DNA from: Gammaproteobacteria bacterium
GTDB taxonomy: Bacteria > Pseudomonadota > Gammaproteobacteria > UBA4575
Reading direction: 5' to 3'
Assembly: GCA_965243395.1 (NCBI GenBank)
Contig: CBDEUS010000001.1
Span: 1,184,001-1,248,000 of the forward strand
Length of the DNA: 64,000 nucleotides
How positions within the stretch are numbered: the first letter of the stretch is position 1; each line of letters opens with the position of its first letter. The translations under genes and the position numbers were made by a program. The notes beneath the pieces are model-generated. The model made no database searches, was not told where the DNA came from, and saw nothing but the letters and a program-made list of their open reading frames with translations. This document shows positions 1-9,099 of this stretch, in pieces.

Positions 1-243
1 AGCTTCTGAATTTAATAATTTTACTAATTTTGGCGAATGTCTTGCGTAGGAAAGAGGAATTAAAGATCCATAACCTGCTTGAGCAAGTTTATTGCATGAT
101 TCTTTCCATAAAGGATAGTACTCTTTTGGGAAAAACGGCTTAGCTTTTTCAATTAAAAAAACTAATCGTTCATCTGGATCACCAGGTTCTTTATGTTGAG
201 GTAAAACAGCATATTTACCCCGCGTAGTGGAGGCAGCAGCCAA
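1..243 (-). CDS. 5' part of a probable CbbO/NorD-like VWA-domain partner protein (runs off the window start)
   Basis: Not in the ORF track. Hand translation from TTG at 243 (GAGGTG RBS just upstream) is open to base 1: MAAASTTRGKYAVLPQHKEPGDPDERLVFLIEKAKPFFPKEYYPLWKESCNKLAQAGYGSLIPLSYARHSPKLVKLLNSEA. It starts 8 nt after the CbbQ-like gene, where CbbO/NorD partners usually lie. The VWA domain itself would be outside the window. Confidence 0.6.
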   Translation of the reverse strand, partial: MAAASTTRGKYAVLPQHKEPGDPDERLVFLIEKAKPFFPKEYYPLWKESCNKLAQAGYGSLIPLSYARHSPKLVKLLNSEA

Positions 244-251
244 GACTCACC

Positions 252-1049
252 TCACGCACAAGCCTCAATGGCTGAACTCAGCGCATTGCGTATATCATGG
301 TCATCTGTAATAGGTAATACTAATGCAACTTCACAAGCTTCTTCTAAAGACACTCCCTGTGATATAAGTTGCGCAGCATAAATTAGCATTCTAGTCGATG
401 CTCCTTCATCTAAACCATGACCTTTCAAATTTCTAGAGCGATCTGATATTTGTACTAACTTCCTAGCTATATCAACATTGATTCCTGATTCATGTGCAAT
501 AATTTTTGCCTCTTCATCTGCTTTAGGATAATTAAAATCAATCGCACCAAACCTTTGTTTTGTAGACTCTTTCAAATCTTTCAAGACACTTTGATATCCG
601 GGGTTATAAGAAATCACAATTTGAAAATCTTGATTTGCTTTTACAACCTCATTTTTTTTCTCCAATGACAACATGCGACGGTCATCTGTTAATGAGTGTA
701 TAACAACACTCGTATCCTGCCTTGCCTCAACAATCTCATCTAAATAACAAATTGCTCCGTATCGTACTGCAAGTGTTAGAGGGCCATCGTGCCAAACTGT
801 TCCTTCAGCATCGAGGAGATAACGACCTACCAAGTCAGAGGCAGTCATGTCTTCATGACAAGAAACTGTGATAAGCGGTTTTTTTAACTTCCATGCCATA
901 TATTCAACAAAGCGTGTTTTTCCGCAACCTGTTGGTCCTTTTAGCATCATTGGCATCCTAGTCGCGTAGGCTGCTTCAAACAATTGAATCTCATTATGGG
1001 TGGGAGAGTAATAAGGTTCTTCAGTAATGAAGTAACTATCGAGATTCAT
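252..1049 (-). CDS. CbbQ/NirQ/NorQ-family MoxR-type AAA+ ATPase
   Basis: N-terminal EPYY motif, Walker A GPTGCGKT, Walker B CYLDEIVEARQD, SYNPGYQS..KDLKESTKQRF and GLDEGASTRMLIYAA are all hallmark CbbQ/NorQ motifs. Confidence 0.93.
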   Translation of the reverse strand: MNLDSYFITEEPYYSPTHNEIQLFEAAYATRMPMMLKGPTGCGKTRFVEYMAWKLKKPLITVSCHEDMTASDLVGRYLLDAEGTVWHDGPLTLAVRYGAICYLDEIVEARQDTSVVIHSLTDDRRMLSLEKKNEVVKANQDFQIVISYNPGYQSVLKDLKESTKQRFGAIDFNYPKADEEAKIIAHESGINVDIARKLVQISDRSRNLKGHGLDEGASTRMLIYAAQLISQGVSLEEACEVALVLPITDDHDIRNALSSAIEACA

Positions 1050-1070
1050 TCTGCTTTCCTTAATTTACAG

Positions 1071-1106
1071 AAAAATAAGGCGAAGACACAAGCGTGCCCT
1101 CGCCTT
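1071..1106 (-). terminator. 13-bp hairpin plus U-rich tail after amiE (leaky terminator or mRNA stabiliser)
   Basis: Minus strand reads AAGGCGAGGGCAC-GCTT-GTGTCTTCGCCTT-ATTTTT; two G.U pairs form only on the minus strand. Confidence 0.75.
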
Positions 1107-1123
1107 GATTTAAAGTAACTGAA

Positions 1124-2158
1124 TTAACGATGAGTTTTAGGGTTAGGTATTCCTTCAATCTCACACTCTTCAGTACCAACAGTTGTGCGCGTAATAGACT
1201 CAACCATTTCGCGTGTTGCATCTGGATCTGTAATCCATTTTTTGTAAAAGTCATATGGACATTCTGCAACACCTTGATCACCTTCACCAGAGTTAATTTT
1301 ACCGGTGTAACCTCTATGAAGAAGTTTAAATAAGTGATTTTGTGATTGTTGATTTTTACGTGCATCCCGAATGAGTGAAGTCGACAAGTTTGCATACTGA
1401 ACGCCCATGTCTTCCTCTGCACAAGCACCAAGTGTGCGTCCATCGAATCCAATTATTGAAGAATAACCAAAATATGAATACACACCATCAAATCCTGTTG
1501 CATTTGCAACAGCAACATAACAGTTGTTCATCCATGCCATTGCTTTGGCTACCATAATTTGCTGATCTTTCGATGGATACATATAGCCTTGACAACGTAC
1601 GATTAACTCTGCACCTTTCATTGCACAATCACGCCATATTTCAGGATAGTTTCCGTCATCACAAATGATTAGACTTATCTTTAAGCCTTTAGGACCATCT
1701 GAAACATAAGTGCAATTACCAGGATACCAACCTTCAATAGGTACCCAAGGCATAATTTTGCGATACTTTTGCACGATCTCTCCTTGATCATTCATCAAAA
1801 TTAAAGTGTTGTATGGCGCTTTGTTTGGATGATCTTCATGGCGTTCGCCGGTCAATGAAAATACACCCCAAACTTTTGCATTACGACATGCTTCTGCAAA
1901 AATTTCAGTTTCTTCACCTGGACATGTTGATGCAGTTTCATACATCTCTTTCTCATCATACATAATTCCATGAGTGCTATATTCAGGAAAAATTACCAGA
2001 TCCATTCCAGGTAAACCTACTTTCATACCTTCAATCATGCTTGCAATATTGCGCGCATTATCGAGCACTTCGGCTTTAGTATGCAGTCTTGGCATTTTGT
2101 AATTTACAACTGCAACGCCGACGGCATCTTTACTACTTGATATATCACCGTGATACAT
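1124..2158 (-). CDS. amiE: Aliphatic amidase (nitrilase superfamily)
   Basis: [23 protein letters not shown]-terminus and catalytic triad motifs [23 protein letters not shown] are characteristic of AmiE. GGAGG RBS present. Confidence 0.97.
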
Positions 2159-2268
2159 ATTTCATCCTCCTCGTCAGTCATTACCTAAAAACTGACATTT
2201 TTATAAAAATTAATTTCAAACCAGTTTGAATCTTTACCAAAATAGGTAAATTTTTTACTCACACGCAC

Positions 2269-2344
2269 AAAAAAAGCCCTCTAGGGAAAATTCCTAGAGG
2301 GCTTTTTTGCCCAAAACTTTCTGCAGAAGCGTTATTGGTTCTGC
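2269..2344 (-). promoter_or_regulatory. ANTAR-type dual-hexaloop leader overlapping an intrinsic terminator, upstream of amiE
   Basis: Minus strand: GCAGAA-C-C[AATAAC]G-C-TTCTGC (P1), linker, GGGC[AAAAAA]GCCC (P2). The 3' arm of P2 is the 5' arm of the terminator GCCCTCTAGG..CCTAGAGGGC-T7. Adjacent to amiR. Confidence 0.88.
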
Positions 2345-2381
2345 TGAATAATTCAATTAATACTAGCGATGTGTTAAGTGC

Positions 2382-2410
2382 TTTTTAGACCAATTCTTAG
2401 CAAACGTCAA
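2382..2410 (-). promoter_or_regulatory. Candidate sigma70 promoter for amiE
   Basis: TTGACG-N17-TAAAAA on the minus strand; predicted start about 30 nt before P1. Confidence 0.5.
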
Positions 2411-2463
2411 GAACTTCGTTAAATCCATTTAAAACGTATAGGTATAAAATTAACTTAAGTTCT

Positions 2464-3066
2464 TCATTCAACATTCACTTCTAAAGTTTTATCCGCAGCA
2501 ACTATTTCTTGTGCAACATCTTCCGTAGTTAAACGACGCTCCATGGCTTTAGACCTAATAAATTCATACGCTTGTTCGCGACTAATGTTATTTGCCCTTT
2601 CAAGTATCGCTATTGCATGCTCAACAGCATGAATATTTCTAATTTTCGTCTCGAGCTTTTGTACCCTAGAACCAAGTATTAATTCTTTACGCCAATGTGT
2701 TCTCGCGATCACCATATTGGCTAATAGGCCAAAAGGTCGAACAGGTGTATTCAGTATTGCATGTGCGCCCAATTCATACGCAGTTTGTAATACGGTCGGA
2801 TTTTCGTAATCAACTATAGCTATGATTGTTGGACTGTTTTTATCATCTGCTAACCATGTAGGCTTTTCAACAAATGGGTGATCTTGCAAAGTCTGCAAAA
2901 AAACTACATCGGTGTTCGATTTAATACGTTTGGGGCAAGGCCATACCATTCGCACCGAGCAACCAATACGTTCTATATGCTGACATATATCACTACCCTG
3001 CTCGTTATTAGGATGAACAACTAATATCCTAAGCTTGCGTAGATCTTTTAATATCTCAATCGCCAT
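2464..3066 (-). CDS. amiR: AmiR-type ANTAR antiterminator (pseudo-receiver plus ANTAR domain)
   Basis: AmiR-like N-terminus (LRKLRILVVHP..IGCSVRMVWP; IIAIVDYENPTVL) and C-terminal ANTAR (AYEFIRSKAMERR..VAQEI). Lies 2 nt downstream of amiC. Confidence 0.9.
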   Translation of the reverse strand: MAIEILKDLRKLRILVVHPNNEQGSDICQHIERIGCSVRMVWPCPKRIKSNTDVVFLQTLQDHPFVEKPTWLADDKNSPTIIAIVDYENPTVLQTAYELGAHAILNTPVRPFGLLANMVIARTHWRKELILGSRVQKLETKIRNIHAVEHAIAILERANNISREQAYEFIRSKAMERRLTTEDVAQEIVAADKTLEVNVE

Positions 3067-3068
3067 AT

Positions 3069-4235
3069 TTAACTCAGTTCGCTTTCAAAATATTTCATAC
3101 GACTCAAGCTCTTGTCCGAACCAAGATCAACGAGATATGGATCAGGTTTAACTGGACCATCTGTTTCTGCAACGATTTGGAATTGTCCTGATTTATTTAC
3201 TCGACCAATTTTTGGCCAAAGAAATGTGTGGTTGTTATCAGGATCAATTTGAATAGAACCTTGTGGCGCATCAAATATTGTGCCTAGTGTTGCTGTGCGG
3301 ACAATTTCTGTATCCAATGTGCCTACTCGACGTAACACATCTGCAAAAAGGTGGACTTGAAAATAAGCTGCTTCTGCACAAGCATTAGTACGCAATCTAT
3401 TGCCAAACATTGCTTTATATTTTTTGACAAATTTATAATTTGAAGGTGTTTGTACAGATTCAAAATAGGGTGCTGCAGTAATATGACCCTCCCCTACTTC
3501 CTCTCCCATCGCACTCACTTCTGCTTCACTTGTAGTTAGGCTAGCAATAGGCATTTGCTTTGGTTGCAAACCCGCATTCCAATAACTTTTATAAAATTTA
3601 CTTGTTGCAGACCCTACAATAGTACTGAAAATGACATTGGGTCGTTTTTCTAATATATCAACCAAAATTGGGTCAATATCATTTTTAGTTGCATCTAATG
3701 GAAGATATTTTTCTGCAACAACTTTGCCACCAGCTGAATTCAAAATATCCTTCATAATGCGATTTGACTCATAAGGATAAATATAATTTGAGCCTATAAA
3801 ATAAAATCGATTTCCATATTGATTCAATAAATATCGTGCCAAAAACATACTGTTTTGGTTGGGTGCTGCACCTGTATAAATTACATTTTTTGAATATTCA
3901 AAGCCTTCATAAAGTGTCGGATACCATAAAAGTCCATTATGGTTCTCAACAATCGGTAGCACAGCTTTGCGCGTGCTCGACATATAGCACCCAAAGATTA
4001 TGTTTGCTGAATCTTTTGTAATTAAACGATTTGCTAATCGTCGAAAGTTTTCAGGATTAGACTGGGGATCATAATAAATGGGTTTGATATTTCTACCATT
4101 AACACCCCCATTTGAATTAATTTCACGAATTGCTAATAAGGTAGCATTAAGTTGTGTTTTTTCTATTACAGATGTAACACCTGTTTTAGAAAATAAAATT
4201 CCAACTTTCCAAGAAGATTTGACCACATCAAACAC
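3069..4235 (-). CDS. amiC: AmiC-type cytoplasmic amide sensor (periplasmic-binding-protein fold, no signal peptide)
   Basis: VGILFSKTGVT, IFGCYMSSTRKAVLP, LWYPTLYEGFEYS, YTGAAPNQNS, YIYPYESNRIM; GTG start; coupled to amiR. Confidence 0.9.
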   Translation of the reverse strand: MFDVVKSSWKVGILFSKTGVTSVIEKTQLNATLLAIREINSNGGVNGRNIKPIYYDPQSNPENFRRLANRLITKDSANIIFGCYMSSTRKAVLPIVENHNGLLWYPTLYEGFEYSKNVIYTGAAPNQNSMFLARYLLNQYGNRFYFIGSNYIYPYESNRIMKDILNSAGGKVVAEKYLPLDATKNDIDPILVDILEKRPNVIFSTIVGSATSKFYKSYWNAGLQPKQMPIASLTTSEAEVSAMGEEVGEGHITAAPYFESVQTPSNYKFVKKYKAMFGNRLRTNACAEAAYFQVHLFADVLRRVGTLDTEIVRTATLGTIFDAPQGSIQIDPDNNHTFLWPKIGRVNKSGQFQIVAETDGPVKPDPYLVDLGSDKSLSRMKYFESELS

Positions 4236-4642
4236 CTCAGGTTACGGGTTGTAATTATTCTATGTGGTATTTAATTAATAAATATTACCTTACGTAACTG
4301 CTTATTTTGAACTAAATTACAAAGTCTCGTCTATGTTTTTAATAATATTTAGGATGATGTAATAACAAATTAATTTTTCTAATCACCACCCAAGCAATTA
4401 ATTTATGATGCTGAGCATGTTCTAATAGTGCAAAAACTAATGACATCTATTGGAAAATGTAATATTCAAGCTATTTCAATATCTAGGAAATAATTTTTCT
4501 TTGAATTTAGTCTTCACGAATATCACTACTTGGTAGTTTTAAAATTGCTTGCTTTTAAATTTATTTCGATGAATAATCTATTTTTATAGACACACTAAAA
4601 TATACTGCTGAAATACTTTAGAATTAATCATTAGCAGTAAAA

Positions 4643-4723
4643 ATAACGAAACCAACAGTGCTTTCGTTATCAGATTTGGCAAAAAAGCCCTCTAGAAACT
4701 AAGGTTTTCTAGGGGGCTTTTTT
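4643..4723 (+). promoter_or_regulatory. ANTAR-type dual-hexaloop/terminator unit 1 in the ABC transporter leader
   Basis: ATAACGAAA-C-C[AACAGT]G-C-TTTCGTTAT (P1, 4643-4670); GGC[AAAAAA]GCC (P2, 4678-4689) overlapping terminator GCCCTCTAGAAA..TTTCTAGGGGGC-T6. Confidence 0.88.
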
Positions 4724-4740
4724 GTTTGTGTAATATTTTT

Positions 4741-4814
4741 CTAACAAAACCAAAAACGCTTTTGTTAGCTGTAGGCAATAACGCCTCTAAAGAATTTTCT
4801 TTAGAGGTTTTTTT
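4741..4814 (+). promoter_or_regulatory. ANTAR-type dual-hexaloop/terminator unit 2 in the ABC transporter leader
   Basis: CTAACAAAA-C-C[AAAAAC]G-C-TTTTGTTAG (P1, 4741-4768); AGGC[AATAAC]GCCT (P2, 4773-4786) overlapping terminator CCTCTAAAGA-ATTT-TCTTTAGAGG-T7. Confidence 0.88.
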
Positions 4815-4889
4815 ATGCCAATTAAAAATAAATAAACATTTAAACAAACTTACTTAAGTACATATCAGTCAAGTTCAGGAGGCTTTCAA

Positions 4890-6194
4890 ATGAATCGACG
4901 CAAATTTCTAAAAAAATCTGCTGTCGTAGCGGGAACTGCAGCCGCAGCTACGATCTCTGACTTTCCTTACTTTTTCACAAGAAATTATGCGAAAGCAGCA
5001 GCAGGAGATACTATAAAAATTGGTATCCTGCATTCACTAAGTGGAACTATTGCGATTATTGAACGTTCACTGCATAACGCAGAGTTGTTAGCCATTGATG
5101 AAATCAATGCGGCTGGCGGTGTTATGGGTAAACAATTAGAGCCTGTAATTGAAGACCCACAATCCCTCGTTCAGGTATTCGCAGAAAAAGCGAAGAAACT
5201 TATTCTTGAAGATGAAGTTGTAGCTGTATTAGGTTGTTATACATCTGCGAGTCGTCAATCGGTTTTACCAGTATTTGAGCAACATAATAATGTTCTCTTA
5301 TATCCAACCCTTTACGAGGCACAGGAATGCAGTAAAAACTGTTTCTACACTGGCTGCGTTCCAAATCAGCAACTAGATGATTTTGTTCCATGGCTAATTG
5401 AAAATGTTGGACCTAAGTTTTATATGCTTGGGTCGAATTATATCTATCCAAAAGAAACCAATCGTGAAGTGAAAGCTTTGCTTAAAGCTCATGGTGGTGA
5501 GGATGTTGGAGAAGAATATGCGCCTCTTGGTCATACAGAATTTTCTACTAACATTAACAAAATTGCTTCTAAACAACCTGATGTCGTGTTCTCCGATCTT
5601 GTGGGTGACTCAGTTGTGGCTTTCTACAAACAATTCCGTCAGTTTGGACTAACTGCAGACGATATGATAATTGCCACACCCATTACTACCGAACAAGAGA
5701 CTGCGGCAATGGGACCAGAAAATGCATTAGGTCACTTAACTTCATTCAACTATTTCCAATCAGTTGATACACCAGAAAACAATAAGTTTGTTGAAGCTTA
5801 TAAAGCGAAATATGGTAAAAACGAAGTTACCAATGCAGTGATGGAAGCGGCTTATTTTCAAACACATATGCTTGCGCAAGCAATTGAAAAGGCGGGCTCA
5901 ACAGAAGCCGATGCATTAATTTTTGAAGGTTTACCTGGTCAAGAATTTACTGCTCCAGGTGGAAAAGTCAAAATTGATGAGAAAAATCATCACACGTGGC
6001 TATGGCCGAAAATTGGACGTGCTAATGAACAAGGCCAATTTGACATCATATGGCAACGTGATGATTGGGTGCGCCCTGATCCATGGGTAGACCTATTGTA
6101 TCCAAATAAGGATTGCGATTTTACTAATCCAAGTGTTCTCGAACGATTGAAGTCTGGTGATCCAGATCGTTCAGGAACATTCGATATAAGTTAG
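4890..6194 (+). CDS. Amide/urea ABC transporter substrate-binding protein (UrtA/FmdD-like) with Tat signal
   Basis: Twin-arginine motif NRRKFLK; IKIGILHSLSGT, GCYTSASRQSVLPVFE, YPTLYE; AGGAGG RBS. Confidence 0.9.
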   Translation: MNRRKFLKKSAVVAGTAAAATISDFPYFFTRNYAKAAAGDTIKIGILHSLSGTIAIIERSLHNAELLAIDEINAAGGVMGKQLEPVIEDPQSLVQVFAEKAKKLILEDEVVAVLGCYTSASRQSVLPVFEQHNNVLLYPTLYEAQECSKNCFYTGCVPNQQLDDFVPWLIENVGPKFYMLGSNYIYPKETNREVKALLKAHGGEDVGEEYAPLGHTEFSTNINKIASKQPDVVFSDLVGDSVVAFYKQFRQFGLTADDMIIATPITTEQETAAMGPENALGHLTSFNYFQSVDTPENNKFVEAYKAKYGKNEVTNAVMEAAYFQTHMLAQAIEKAGSTEADALIFEGLPGQEFTAPGGKVKIDEKNHHTWLWPKIGRANEQGQFDIIWQRDDWVRPDPWVDLLYPNKDCDFTNPSVLERLKSGDPDRSGTFDIS

Positions 6195-6214
6195 GTCAGC
6201 ATCATGTGTAAAAA

Positions 6215-6240
6215 GGTGGTAGTAATTTTTTACTACCACC
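6215..6240. other. Perfect 11-bp intergenic hairpin after the SBP gene
   Basis: GGTGGTAGTAA-TTTT-TTACTACCACC. No U-tract on +, but A5 precedes it (U-tract on -). Probably stabilises the SBP mRNA segment. Confidence 0.7.
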
Positions 6241-6284
6241 CCTTCTAACCTACGTGCCATTTTCTATAAAAAGAAAAATTTGAA

Positions 6285-7154
6285 ATGGAAGCAATCATCA
6301 CTCAATTTCTAAGTGGATTCAGTGTAGTAGCAATTTTAATTATTGCGGCTGTAGGTCTAGCCATAATCTTCGGTGTTGCCGGTGTCATAAACATGGCACA
6401 TGGCGAGTTCATTATGGTTGGTGCCTACACAGCAGCTGTTGTTGGGCAACTCGGTGGTAATACCTTTATTGCTATTCCAGTTGCGTTTGTAGTTGTTGCT
6501 TTACTTGGATTAATTGTAGAGCGATCTGTCATTCAGTGGATTTACGATCGACCGTTGGAAACGTTACTTGCTACCTGGGGTGTTGGGATCATTTTACAAG
6601 TGGTAATGAAATTAATATTTGGCCCAGAGCTATATTATGTTGGTGCACCGAAAATTCTTGACGGTGGCTTTCGAGTTATTGGCTTACTTCCTTTCCCATG
6701 GTACCGATTATTTTTAATCATACTTGCAATTGCACTAATGATAATTACATACCTGGTTATGTTCAAAACTGATTTAGGTTTAAAAGTTAGAGCAGTACGA
6801 AGAAACAGAACCATGTCAGGATGTTTAGGTATCGATACCGCAAGAGTCGATATGATTATTTTTGCGTTTGGCTCTGGATTAGCCGGAGTAGCAGGCGCAG
6901 CACTAGCCCCTATCAAGTCAGTTTCAACCACTATGGGTTTCCCCTACGCAGTGGATTCATTCATGGTTTTAGTGTTAGGAGGTGTTGGAAATCTTTGGGG
7001 TGTGGTTGCAGGTTCATTTTTAATAGGGGAAGCAGAAACGATATTGTCATTTATTTATAACAATGTAATTGGAAAACTTTTAGTTTTCATTTTTATAGTT
7101 TTAGCTATACGTGTATTCCCTAGGGGATTATTTGGGTATCACGAACGAACTTAA
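6285..7154 (+). CDS. ABC transporter permease (UrtB/LivH-like)
   Basis: GLAIIFG..GVINMAHGEFIMVGAY, RPLETLLATWG, FGSGLAGVAG; multiple TM segments. Confidence 0.92.
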   Translation: MEAIITQFLSGFSVVAILIIAAVGLAIIFGVAGVINMAHGEFIMVGAYTAAVVGQLGGNTFIAIPVAFVVVALLGLIVERSVIQWIYDRPLETLLATWGVGIILQVVMKLIFGPELYYVGAPKILDGGFRVIGLLPFPWYRLFLIILAIALMIITYLVMFKTDLGLKVRAVRRNRTMSGCLGIDTARVDMIIFAFGSGLAGVAGAALAPIKSVSTTMGFPYAVDSFMVLVLGGVGNLWGVVAGSFLIGEAETILSFIYNNVIGKLLVFIFIVLAIRVFPRGLFGYHERT

Positions 7155-7166
7155 CAAAAGGAACTA

Positions 7167-8330
7167 TTGAGAAGTGTAGCAATGGTGAATGAAAGAAGTA
7201 TAAATAAAGCACCAATGTTTCCATTACTATCTGTTGTAGTCGCAACAGCTATTGTGCTTGCTATTGCAACATATCCTATGTATGGAGCCGAGTATGTTAC
7301 ATCTTTATTAGGAAAGTTCTTATGCTATGCAATTTTTGCATTAAGTCTAGATTTGATTTGGGGTTTCACTGGAATTTTAAGCTTAGGACAAGCAGTTTAT
7401 TTTGGTATCGGGGCCTATTCAGTCGCACTGTCTCTTAAAATAGATTACGCCTCTACACACCCTACACGTTACGGAGGCACGATCCCTGATTTTATGGAAT
7501 GGAATGGCCTCACTGAGTTGCCAAATTTCATGGCGCCATTGCAAAATTTACCTTTTGCAGTATTTGTTGGCTTAGCATTCGCTACATTTATTGCATTTAT
7601 ATTTGGTGTAATCACATTTAAACGTCACATTTATGGTGTGTATTGTGCAGTAATCACGCTCGCTGAATCTCTCATCCTGCAAGAAGCCATAATTGAATAT
7701 CAGGCCTACACCGGAGGATTCAATGGCATCACAGATTATGGAACACACGCTACTAAATTCTATCTTTGGTTTATTTTAGCTGTAACCATCTTCTTCTTCG
7801 CACTCGGAAGAGTTTTAACTCATTCACGCGTCGGAACAGTATTAAAGTCTATTCGAGATAATGACGTGCGCGCAGAATTTATGGGTTATAACGTTGCCAA
7901 CTATCGAATTTTTGTTTACTGCTTATCAAGCTTTATGGCGGCTAGTGCGGGCGCTATGTATGCAGCGTGGAACGGTATCATATCATTCTTAGATGCGGGG
8001 CCTATATTTTCTATTGAAGCTGTAATTTGGACTGCAGTTGGTGGACGCGGGACTATCATTGGTCCATTCATAGGAGCCTTCTTAGTGAAGGGCTCAGAAT
8101 TTTTCTTAAGTGGAAAACTTGCATGGACTTGGCAACTCATTATGGGTGGTTTGTTTATATTTGTAGTTCTTGTTATGCGAGATGGAATTGTAGGAACAAT
8201 TGGAAAATGGTGGGCGGCAAGAAAAAAACATGCATCTATCAAAGGCACAGTTGCTGAATCAGATGCTACTGCATCTGATCGACAAAAAGACTGGCAACCT
8301 GGACAATCGAAAGGACCTGATGAAATTTAA
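7167..8330 (+). CDS. ABC transporter permease (UrtC/LivM-like); start may be the ATG at 7182
   Basis: GKFLCYAIFALSLDLIWGFTGILSLGQ, PDFMEWNG, TGGFNGIT, IRDND.R..FMGY, AVGGRGT. Confidence 0.92.
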   Translation: MRSVAMVNERSINKAPMFPLLSVVVATAIVLAIATYPMYGAEYVTSLLGKFLCYAIFALSLDLIWGFTGILSLGQAVYFGIGAYSVALSLKIDYASTHPTRYGGTIPDFMEWNGLTELPNFMAPLQNLPFAVFVGLAFATFIAFIFGVITFKRHIYGVYCAVITLAESLILQEAIIEYQAYTGGFNGITDYGTHATKFYLWFILAVTIFFFALGRVLTHSRVGTVLKSIRDNDVRAEFMGYNVANYRIFVYCLSSFMAASAGAMYAAWNGIISFLDAGPIFSIEAVIWTAVGGRGTIIGPFIGAFLVKGSEFFLSGKLAWTWQLIMGGLFIFVVLVMRDGIVGTIGKWWAARKKHASIKGTVAESDATASDRQKDWQPGQSKGPDEI

Positions 8331-8358
8331 CAAATAAACTTTTTCATAAAAATTATCA

Positions 8359-9099
8359 ATGACAAACATTCTAGAAGTACAAGGACTCACCACTGAAGTA
8401 AGTGGTTATACAATTCTCGATAACCTGGATTTTAGTATCGAAGAAAATGAGTTACGTGTAGTACTCGGACCCAATGGCGCAGGAAAAACGACGTTGATCG
8501 ATATGATAACTGGTCGTTATAAACCAAAATCTGGAAAAATAATTTTTGACGGTGAAAACATTACCAATAATCCACCTGATAAAATTTTTGTCAAAGGTAT
8601 TAGCCGAAAATTTCAAGTCCCAAATTTATACGAGACATTATCTGTGTACGATAACATCATGGTTTCTTTAAAAGGACGTCGTAAAGTTTTTAAATCATTA
8701 TTTGGAAAAGTAACTAAAAAAGACAATGAAAGAATTTGGGAAATATTAGATTTCATAATGTTGGCAAACAAAGCCGAAGACAGTGTAGATACCCTGGGTC
8801 ATGGGCAAAGACAATGGCTGGAGCTCGGAATGCTTATTGCAGCAGAACCAAAGTTACTGTTATTAGACGAACCAACTACTGGCATGACCGCTGATGGTAA
8901 AGAAAAAACGGCTGAACTCATTCAGAAAATTGCAGAAAACCACGCTGTCATGTTAGTTGAACATGATATGGACATCGTTCGAAAAATTGCGAAAAACGTA
9001 ACTGTGCTTGCACAAGGTCAAACATTAGCAGAAGGTCCGCTTGCTGAAGTAGTAGAAAATGAACAAGTAAAAGCAGTTTATTTAGGTAAAGGACACTAA
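8359..9099 (+). CDS. ABC transporter ATP-binding protein (UrtD-like)
   Basis: Walker A GPNGAGKT, RKFQVP, LGHGQRQWLELGM, LLLLDEP, VEHDM. Confidence 0.93.
   Translation: MTNILEVQGLTTEVSGYTILDNLDFSIEENELRVVLGPNGAGKTTLIDMITGRYKPKSGKIIFDGENITNNPPDKIFVKGISRKFQVPNLYETLSVYDNIMVSLKGRRKVFKSLFGKVTKKDNERIWEILDFIMLANKAEDSVDTLGHGQRQWLELGMLIAAEPKLLLLDEPTTGMTADGKEKTAELIQKIAENHAVMLVEHDMDIVRKIAKNVTVLAQGQTLAEGPLAEVVENEQVKAVYLGKGH

Follow-up and report, generated by a model that had tools for sequence, protein, structure and literature searches.

The amidase locus described here raises a question about RNA recognition: which base does an ANTAR-domain antiterminator read when the side chains that contact guanine in its solved relatives have been replaced? 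The locus lies at the left end of a 64,000-nucleotide stretch of gammaproteobacterial DNA (contig CBDEUS010000001.1 of assembly GCA_965243395.1, positions 1,184,001 to 1,248,000 of the forward strand; hereafter the window) and forms an amidase regulon with, on the minus strand, amiC, amiR, a 305-nt spacer, amiE and an AAA gene. A preliminary description of this DNA had proposed that two substitutions in AmiR, Lys to Ile at residue 152 and Met to Glu at residue 156, co-evolved with a change from guanine to adenine at position 4 of the target RNA loops (G4 and A4, respectively). We find that both conserved guanine-contacting side chains are replaced, one of them at a position that had been overlooked, and that A4 occupies every loop of the clade to which this AmiR belongs. 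On balance, though by a small measure, we favor reading the locus as an AmiC/AmiR amide-sensing antitermination system with a remodelled position-4 pocket, a known system in which specificity would have changed from G4 to A4.

Guanine-Contacting Residues Are Replaced in AmiR

The amiR gene (2464..3066, minus strand) encodes a 200-residue protein comprising an AmiR_N pseudo-receiver, a coiled coil and an ANTAR RNA-binding domain. Pfam profile searches cover the whole of AmiR_N (PF21332; 128.7 bits) and place the ANTAR domain (PF03861; 41.3 bits, cut-off 27.3) at residues 137-189 (2500..2658, minus strand). Its closest solved relative, by phmmer against solved chains, is Pseudomonas aeruginosa AmiR (1qo0; E = 4.7e-23). 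When 400 further genomes from the class were sampled at random, AmiR_N matches turned up in only three of them.

In the crystal structure of Enterococcus faecalis EutV bound to RNA, the G4 of the hexaloop is flipped out, stacked on Tyr164 and hydrogen-bonded by Arg142, Lys149 and Glu160 (Walshe et al., 2022, PMC8934654). Binding is reduced 60-fold in the E160A variant, 55-fold in Y164A and 8-fold in R142A, and is abolished in M172A and in the triple variant N173A/R175A/R177A (PMC8934654). The K347R variant of NasR binds about tenfold more weakly (PMC7496416). Judged from its numbering, K347 would be the same Lys as that of column 152 in our alignments. On the RNA side, the eut, nasF and P. aeruginosa amiE leaders have A1 and G4 in each of their two loops, mutating either base costs binding and induction, and in the EutV and NasR systems a G4 mutation in either one of the loops reduces both (Ramesh et al., 2012, PMC3369931); a survey of actinobacteria reports conservation of A1 and G4 above 50% (PMC8164766). 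Literature searches and the text of these sources (PMC3369931, PMC8934654, PMC8164766) and of a 2025 review (PMC12591593), with supplementary alignments outside the scope of the search, yielded only the A1/G4 motif and no A4 class or paired residue changes.

EutV (6wsh) aligns with the window AmiR over 120 residues without gaps, anchored at Tyr164 = Y167 (codon 2566..2568; all codons on the minus strand), the kept aromatic residue of the base stack. This alignment maps Lys149 onto I152 (codon 2611..2613), Val153 onto E156 (codon 2599..2601, one helical turn past I152), Glu160 onto R163 (codon 2578..2580) and Met172 onto M175. Residues 146-160, HAVEHAIAILERANN, contain both I152 and E156. The second half of the domain, AYEFIRSKAMERR, is canonical as the preliminary description stated, with Y167, R171, M175 and R178 equivalent to Y164, R168, M172 and R175 of EutV. 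By this ungapped mapping, AmiR has lost both conserved side chains that read the guanine and has kept the residues of the stack and the plug and two that contact the backbone. Of the features that mark an ANTAR domain, AmiR thus has the Tyr, the Met plug and the backbone Args and lacks the guanine-contacting Lys (of the AKG motif) and Glu. The third contact of EutV, Arg142, falls in a column that holds Ile or Gln in the AmiR group and so is not conserved there, and residue 176, in the column of EutV Asn173, differs as well.

The two substitutions first pointed out are therefore real, and residue 152 does fall on a listed G4 contact of EutV, the structure onto which the preliminary description suggested mapping them. 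That these positions are normally conserved holds, among the solved chains in the phmmer alignments, for the Lys, which 1qo0, EutV (6wsh) and Rv1626 (1s8n) have in common, and fails for the Met: column 156 has Met in 1qo0, Val in EutV and Gln in Rv1626, so that Met at 156 is, by this comparison, a trait of the AmiR group and not of ANTAR domains at large. The preliminary description overlooked the Glu-to-Arg change at residue 163, a column occupied by Glu in 1qo0, EutV and Rv1626 alike.

All Hexaloops of the Window Carry A4

The window contains three modules, each composed of two hairpins (P1 and P2) and a terminator; one precedes amiE and two stand in tandem before a transporter operon. A1 and A4 are found in six of the six loops, and G4 in none. 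In the amiE leader (minus strand), P1 reads GCAGAA-C-C[AATAAC]G-C-TTCTGC (2323..2344; hexaloop 2331-2336, with A4 at 2333) and P2 reads GGGC[AAAAAA]GCCC (2299..2312; hexaloop 2303-2308). The 3' arm of P2 is part of the 5' arm of an intrinsic terminator, GCCCTCTAGG ... CCTAGAGGGC followed by T7 (2269..2302). This leader folds as P1 plus terminator with a minimum free energy of -37.6 kcal/mol (z = -5.9). On the plus strand, the first transporter module (4645..4723) consists of P1 AACGAAA-CC[AACAGT]GC-TTTCGTT, P2 GGC[AAAAAA]GCC, a terminator and a T-run; the second (4743..4815) of P1 AACAAAA-CC[AAAAAC]GC-TTTTGTT, P2 AGGC[AATAAC]GCCT, a terminator (4783-4808) and a T-run. The pattern GGCAANAANGCC occurs at seven sites genome-wide, and only three of these combine P1 with a terminator, all within the amidase locus.

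Two further features of these leaders recur elsewhere. Immediately below the closing C-G pair of P1 lies a pyrimidine-pyrimidine mismatch (C-C or U-C; 2329-2338 and 4652-4661 in the window), which is kept in Ile-type leaders, in a Gln-type leader (L200, 1549-1558) and in alphaproteobacterial Lys-type leaders (L019-L098), and which appears to be a feature of P1 hairpins across the AmiR family. The tandem P1-P2-terminator arrangement of the transporter leader (4640-4815, plus strand) is found again at two other loci (L135 and L157).

A4 Is Invariant in the Ile-Type Clade

We found 82 homologues of the window AmiR. All 49 with at least 45% identity carry Ile or Val at 152, Glu or Gly at 156 and Arg or His at 163, and the 33 with at most 43% identity carry the motif AK.ILM (AR in one of them, I for M in two) together with Glu163. 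By this partition, the substitutions at 152, 156 and 163 are not noise.

Loci of the clade were gathered from related genomes and metagenomes (the order comprises 56 genomes, all of one family), and the leaders of the window and 27 such loci were searched with the hairpin frame fixed and the loop letters left free. The search yielded 24 distinct modules; A1 and A4 are present in each of their 48 loops, and G4 in none of them. Positions 3, 5 and 6 vary, A2 is present in 46 of the 48 loops and A5 in all 24 P2 loops. Covariation across these modules supports the P1 stem: 97% of cells are paired, four of the seven pairs show compensatory changes, and the covariation score of 0.313 compares with 0.167 for shuffled alignments and was reached in none of 500 shuffles. 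Members of the sub-clade with Gly156 have the same A4 loops as those with Glu156. Together with the Val of EutV at this column, this leaves the claim that the Met-to-Glu change formed part of a switch with little force.

Alphaproteobacterial Lys/Glu-Type Relatives Have G4

A contig scan recovered 80 alphaproteobacterial loci encoding AmiRs of the Lys/Met/Glu type, of which 75 entered an automated table. Within these 75, G4 is present in 71 of 71 assigned P2 loops (frame GGC-N6/7-GCC) and in 69 of 69 assigned P1 loops; the loci left unassigned lacked a terminator or hairpin that could be recognised in the 330 nt covered. A generic hairpin-pair detector proved too permissive in AT-rich DNA and was replaced by anchored versions; these misassigned some loops, with an ambiguous register at L021-L023 and P1 missed at L005 and L140 (U-U mismatch). 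Loop positions can be equated between the groups because the P1 frame, [C/U]C-loop-G[C/U] with a mismatch under the closing C-G pair, is common to both. Lys-type leaders from the same AT-rich family as the window have at least one G4 loop in seven of eight loci, which argues that base composition is not the cause of A4.

G4 is the only invariant loop position in the Lys-type alphaproteobacterial leaders, and this bears on an alternative in which the clade reads a different base altogether. Under that alternative, A1/A2 or A5, for example, would be flipped out or read, and the changes at 152 and 163 would belong to a broader redesign of the interface. The constancy of A1 and the P2 A5 and the near-constancy of A2 in the clade would fit such a shift of register, as would the change at residue 176. 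Against it, the leaders keep the hairpin frame, the length of the loop and the closing C-G pair, and the protein keeps the stacking Tyr and the Met plug, so that an unchanged geometry in which the pocket receives a different base is the most economical account; we consider a different binding mode improbable.

A Second A4 Lineage and Co-Resident Systems

A second AmiR with A4 loops is encoded on plasmid pBN4 of Paraburkholderia aromaticivorans BN5, where it is annotated as 'ANTAR domain-containing protein'. As in the window AmiR, Lys152 is absent and residue 163 is basic, and the amiE leader on pBN4 combines the same P1 frame, CC-loop-GC, with two A4 loops (P1 CC[AACATT]GC; P2 GGC[AACAGA]GCC, preceding a terminator). 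It differs from the window in having Gln152 and Lys163, in its GC-rich replicon and in a gene order resembling that of P. aeruginosa (amiE-CbbQ-VWA-amiC-amiR). The same strain has a Lys/Glu-type AmiR on plasmid pBN1, with G4 in both leader loops (AAAGAT and ACAGAA). Genome G028 likewise has two systems, one of the Ile type with A4 loops and one Lys-type AmiC/AmiR pair with AAAGGG as its P2 loop. This Lys-type pair (L160, G028:C9:87500-98500) lies directly upstream of ureF, a gamma-beta fusion gene, ureC and ureG, an arrangement which suggests that these urease genes are under ANTAR control.

Across all loci examined, G4 occupies at least one loop wherever the protein has Glu163, L118 being the sole exception, and proteins that combine a basic residue at 163 with the absence of Lys152 have A4 loops only. 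Replacement of Glu163 by a basic residue (Arg, His or Lys) is thus a better correlate of A4 than loss of Lys152. Such a pattern is the one expected if the base preference of the position-4 pocket had changed.

The recurrence of the RNA change in a Gln/Lys lineage also helps to judge whether the substitutions might instead serve protein-protein contacts, at the interface between ANTAR domains or during sequestration by AmiC, with the A4 loops coincidental. Glu160 does take part in a hydrogen bond that joins the two ANTAR domains of RNA-free EutV (PMC8934654), and AmiC shields the ANTAR domain and blocks access to it in the P. aeruginosa complex (2025 review, PMC12591593). Such an account would leave unexplained both why the loops changed at exactly the base that these residues touch and why the same change is found in the Gln/Lys lineage; of the alternatives that we weighed, we regard it as the least probable and quite unlikely.

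The phylogeny points to separate origins. In a tree of 59 rows, the Ile/Val-type sequences form one clade (Shimodaira-Hasegawa-like approximate likelihood ratio test, 99) and therefore represent one change. In a tree of 106 representatives, the Gln-type rows share a clade of 99% support with 11 rows of the Lys type and stand apart from the Ile-type clade. From these placements, the two A4 lineages are likely to be independent.

Evidence Weighing Against a Specificity Change

Several results weigh against the reading that we favor or limit its reach. The first concern Lys152 itself. A family survey searched 1.84 billion representatives (clusters at 50% identity) and tabulated 117 full-length rows, of which 77 have Lys152 and 40 lack it; for the family at large, then, the Lys is less conserved than the preliminary description implied. 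An Arg or Lys stands at 153 in 20 of these 40. Moreover, an AmiR with Val152 and Glu163 from a Rhizobium plasmid and AmiRs with Thr152 and Glu163 from Cupriavidus and Comamonas plasmids have G4 in both loops. As these two Lys-less lineages keep Glu163 and have G4 loops, Ile152 alone proves little: loss of Lys152 is, by the evidence of these loci, neither rare nor sufficient for A4. The proposed tie between the Lys-to-Ile change and A4 therefore stands within the clade, where all loops have A4 and the Lys/Glu relatives have G4, and does not extend to Lys-less AmiRs in general. Among the variants of the guanine-contact positions that recur in the survey (P0112-P0260) are A-T-R, A-V-R and A-I-R, with the basic residue one position over, and Gly, Ser or His at 163. 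Unusual pockets include Gln/Lys in P0120 and P0131, His163 in P0231 and P0259, and Lys152 combined with Arg163 in P0148.

Other counter-examples come from canonical proteins. The preliminary description had named homologues with Lys and Met and A4 leaders as evidence against its proposal, and these exist in part. A third group of AmiR-like proteins from the same bacterial family (L012-L015, L114, L118 and L119) has Lys152, Met156 and Glu163, and inspection by eye of its seven loci found A4 in six of seven P2 loops and G4 in six of seven P1 loops. At L118, where the terminator is doubtful, G4 is present in neither loop. Metagenomes and a Variovorax replicon supplied another Lys/Glu group (L142-L148, L194), in which P1 has the loop ATGTGT, without G4 in the family frame, and P2 the loop AATGAA. 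Canonical proteins can thus tolerate one non-G4 loop, and A4 is not exclusive to the Ile-type clade. The third group is located upstream of a binding-protein gene or transporter operon, and it was not found together with an Ile-type AmiR in any genome searched.

The number of independent events is also small: the association with A4 amounts to one event in the Ile-type clade and one Gln-type locus. We sought more Gln152/Lys163 loci on plasmids, and the four that were fetched (H62, H63, H64 and H66) all proved to be of the Lys/Glu type, which leaves the second A4 lineage at a single locus. An approximately unbiased test did not reject a common origin of both A4 lineages (difference in log-likelihood 31.4, p = 0.163), for a group that was chosen after the tree had been seen. 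Finally, the EutV complex was solved at low to medium resolution from averaged density (PMC8934654), and the hydrogen-bond chemistry by which we explain a preference for adenine is our own reasoning and not a structural model.

A competing idea is that specificity was relaxed and not switched. In AT-rich genomes, G4 could have drifted to A and the hydrogen bonds specific to guanine been lost, with binding left to the Tyr167 stack, the Met175 plug and the backbone contacts; either purine would then be accepted and the system would not be orthogonal to others. The tolerance of A4 in P2 by Lys/Glu-type proteins of the same family, the G+C content of the window (36.8%) and the intact residues for shape and backbone contacts would all accord with this, as would the statement of Walshe et al. 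that a single hexaloop is enough for binding (PMC8934654). If the pocket accepted either purine, however, G4 might be expected among the 48 clade loops, given that A-to-G is a transition and that positions 3, 5 and 6 vary freely, and it occurs in none. Residue 163, moreover, is not merely lost but consistently basic (Arg or His, and Lys in the second lineage). The Paraburkholderia leader has A4 in both loops despite being GC-rich; AT pressure therefore cannot be the general cause. We thus view relaxed specificity as unlikely, though the most serious of the competing explanations.

Proposed Mechanism

If the position-4 pocket has indeed been remodelled, AmiR would otherwise act according to the P. 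aeruginosa paradigm. Amide binding would release an AmiR dimer from AmiC, and the free dimer would capture the nascent leader RNA by binding the P1 hexaloop hairpin and stabilizing P2, the 3' arm of which otherwise joins the terminator stem. Transcription would then read through into amiE and, past the tandem pair of modules, into the operon of the ABC transporter; with two modules in series, AmiR must presumably act twice before that operon is read. Within the pocket, replacement of the acidic acceptor for guanine N1-H and N2-H by a basic donor to the ring nitrogens of adenine, with the Lys donor to O6 dropped, would favor adenine. With such a preference for A4, AmiR may be insulated from any ANTAR leaders of the G4 type that the cell also contains.

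The Amidase Locus and Its Neighbors

The locus resembles the P. aeruginosa AmiC/AmiR system (1QO0) in the architecture of its AmiR, an AmiR_N domain followed by a coiled coil and an ANTAR domain, in the adjacent AmiC-type gene, in the aliphatic amidase as regulated gene and in a leader terminator overlapped by a hairpin pair. The two systems differ at the G4-contact columns (Lys and Glu in P. aeruginosa, together with Met156; Ile and Arg in the window, together with Glu156) and in their loops, which are A1/G4 in both hairpins of the P. aeruginosa amiE leader (PMC3369931) and A1/A4 in the window. Gene order differs too, the window having amiC-amiR, the leader, amiE and a divergent transporter operon with two more modules. 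The likeness to EutV and its eutP dual-hexaloop RNA (6WW6/6WSH) lies in the ungapped ANTAR fold, in the Tyr of the stack, the Met of the plug and two Args that contact the backbone, and in targets that are hexaloop hairpins with the second one inside a terminator. EutV differs in being a phosphorylated response regulator; and where EutV contacts G4 through Lys149 and Glu160, AmiR has neither residue and its loops have A.

The amiC gene (3069..4235, minus strand) is directly upstream of amiR, its open reading frame (ORF) ending 2 nt before the amiR start, and encodes a protein of the periplasmic-binding-protein fold (Pfam Peripla_BP_5, 488 bits). Its product is a putative ligand-sensing partner of AmiR and, as judged by eye, would be cytoplasmic, since it has no signal-like N-terminus, unlike the binding protein of the transporter. 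The regulated gene amiE (1124..2158, minus strand) encodes an aliphatic amidase (NCBIfam NF009802, 714 bits). In its leader, a promoter-like TTGACG-17 nt-TAAAAA (2382..2410, minus strand) is conserved in orthologous loci; it is a consensus match only, and a simple promoter scan did not list it. Downstream of amiE lies a gene for a CbbQ/NorQ-type AAA protein (252..1049, minus strand; Pfam AAA_5 and CbbQ_C), followed by an ORF that runs beyond the window edge. A CbbQ/NorQ-type gene also comes after amiE on plasmid pBN4, where a VWA-domain gene follows.

A 654-nt spacer separates amiC from the transporter operon, which begins on the plus strand at 4890 with the gene for the substrate-binding protein of a urea/amide-type ABC transporter (4890..6194; Pfam Peripla_BP_5, 495 bits). 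Genes for UrtB-like and then UrtC-like permeases follow. The NCBIfam models for UrtB and UrtC are matched above their cut-offs and the UrtA-like match is below.

An Rfam search of positions 1-9000 of the window, up to E = 10, matched no ANTAR-target RNA family. Matches to His, Thr and Phe leaders and to small RNAs were sub-threshold and driven by terminators, and we took them as spurious. The His_leader matches at the AmiR leaders (2268-2372, minus strand, 38.3 bits; 4625-4725, plus strand, 32.5 bits; gathering score 49) are explained by the terminator hairpins, and a histidine leader was rejected at both sites.

The genome encodes one other ANTAR protein, outside the window: a receiver-ANTAR response regulator beside a histidine kinase (G000:C1:1130795-1131415, minus strand; L099 1432-2055). 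It also lacks the Lys, its first helix reading SIAIGILM; the Glu is replaced by Ser, the Tyr by Phe and the Met plug by Arg, and all 12 orthologues compared, with identities as low as 41%, keep these variants. No dual hexaloop was found in the spacer downstream of this gene.

Implications for ANTAR-RNA Recognition

In the available text of the published descriptions, recognition of RNA by ANTAR domains has been framed through one motif, A1/G4 (PMC3369931, PMC8934654, PMC8164766). Motif or covariance searches that require A1/G4 would miss targets of the A4 type. Because the base and two residues that contact it have changed together, the Ile-type clade offers a two-residue, one-base hypothesis for how ANTAR domains read a base. 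G028 and BN5, with two systems each, provide natural pairs for comparing cross-talk, and, should the preference prove real, A4 recognition would give genetic circuits a second antiterminator channel that is insulated from the first.

A wider statement, to which we give a little less than even credence, is that ANTAR antiterminators have at least two natural codes, with the change of Glu163 to a basic residue and the loss of the Lys shifting the flipped-out base from G4 to A4, in an uncultured gammaproteobacterial family (Ile/Val152, Arg/His163) and in Burkholderiaceae (Gln152, Lys163). If this is true, cells such as those of G028 and BN5 would run two AmiC/AmiR circuits side by side without cross-talk, and the one third of AmiR-like representatives without Lys152 would point to further codes that have so far gone unrecognized.

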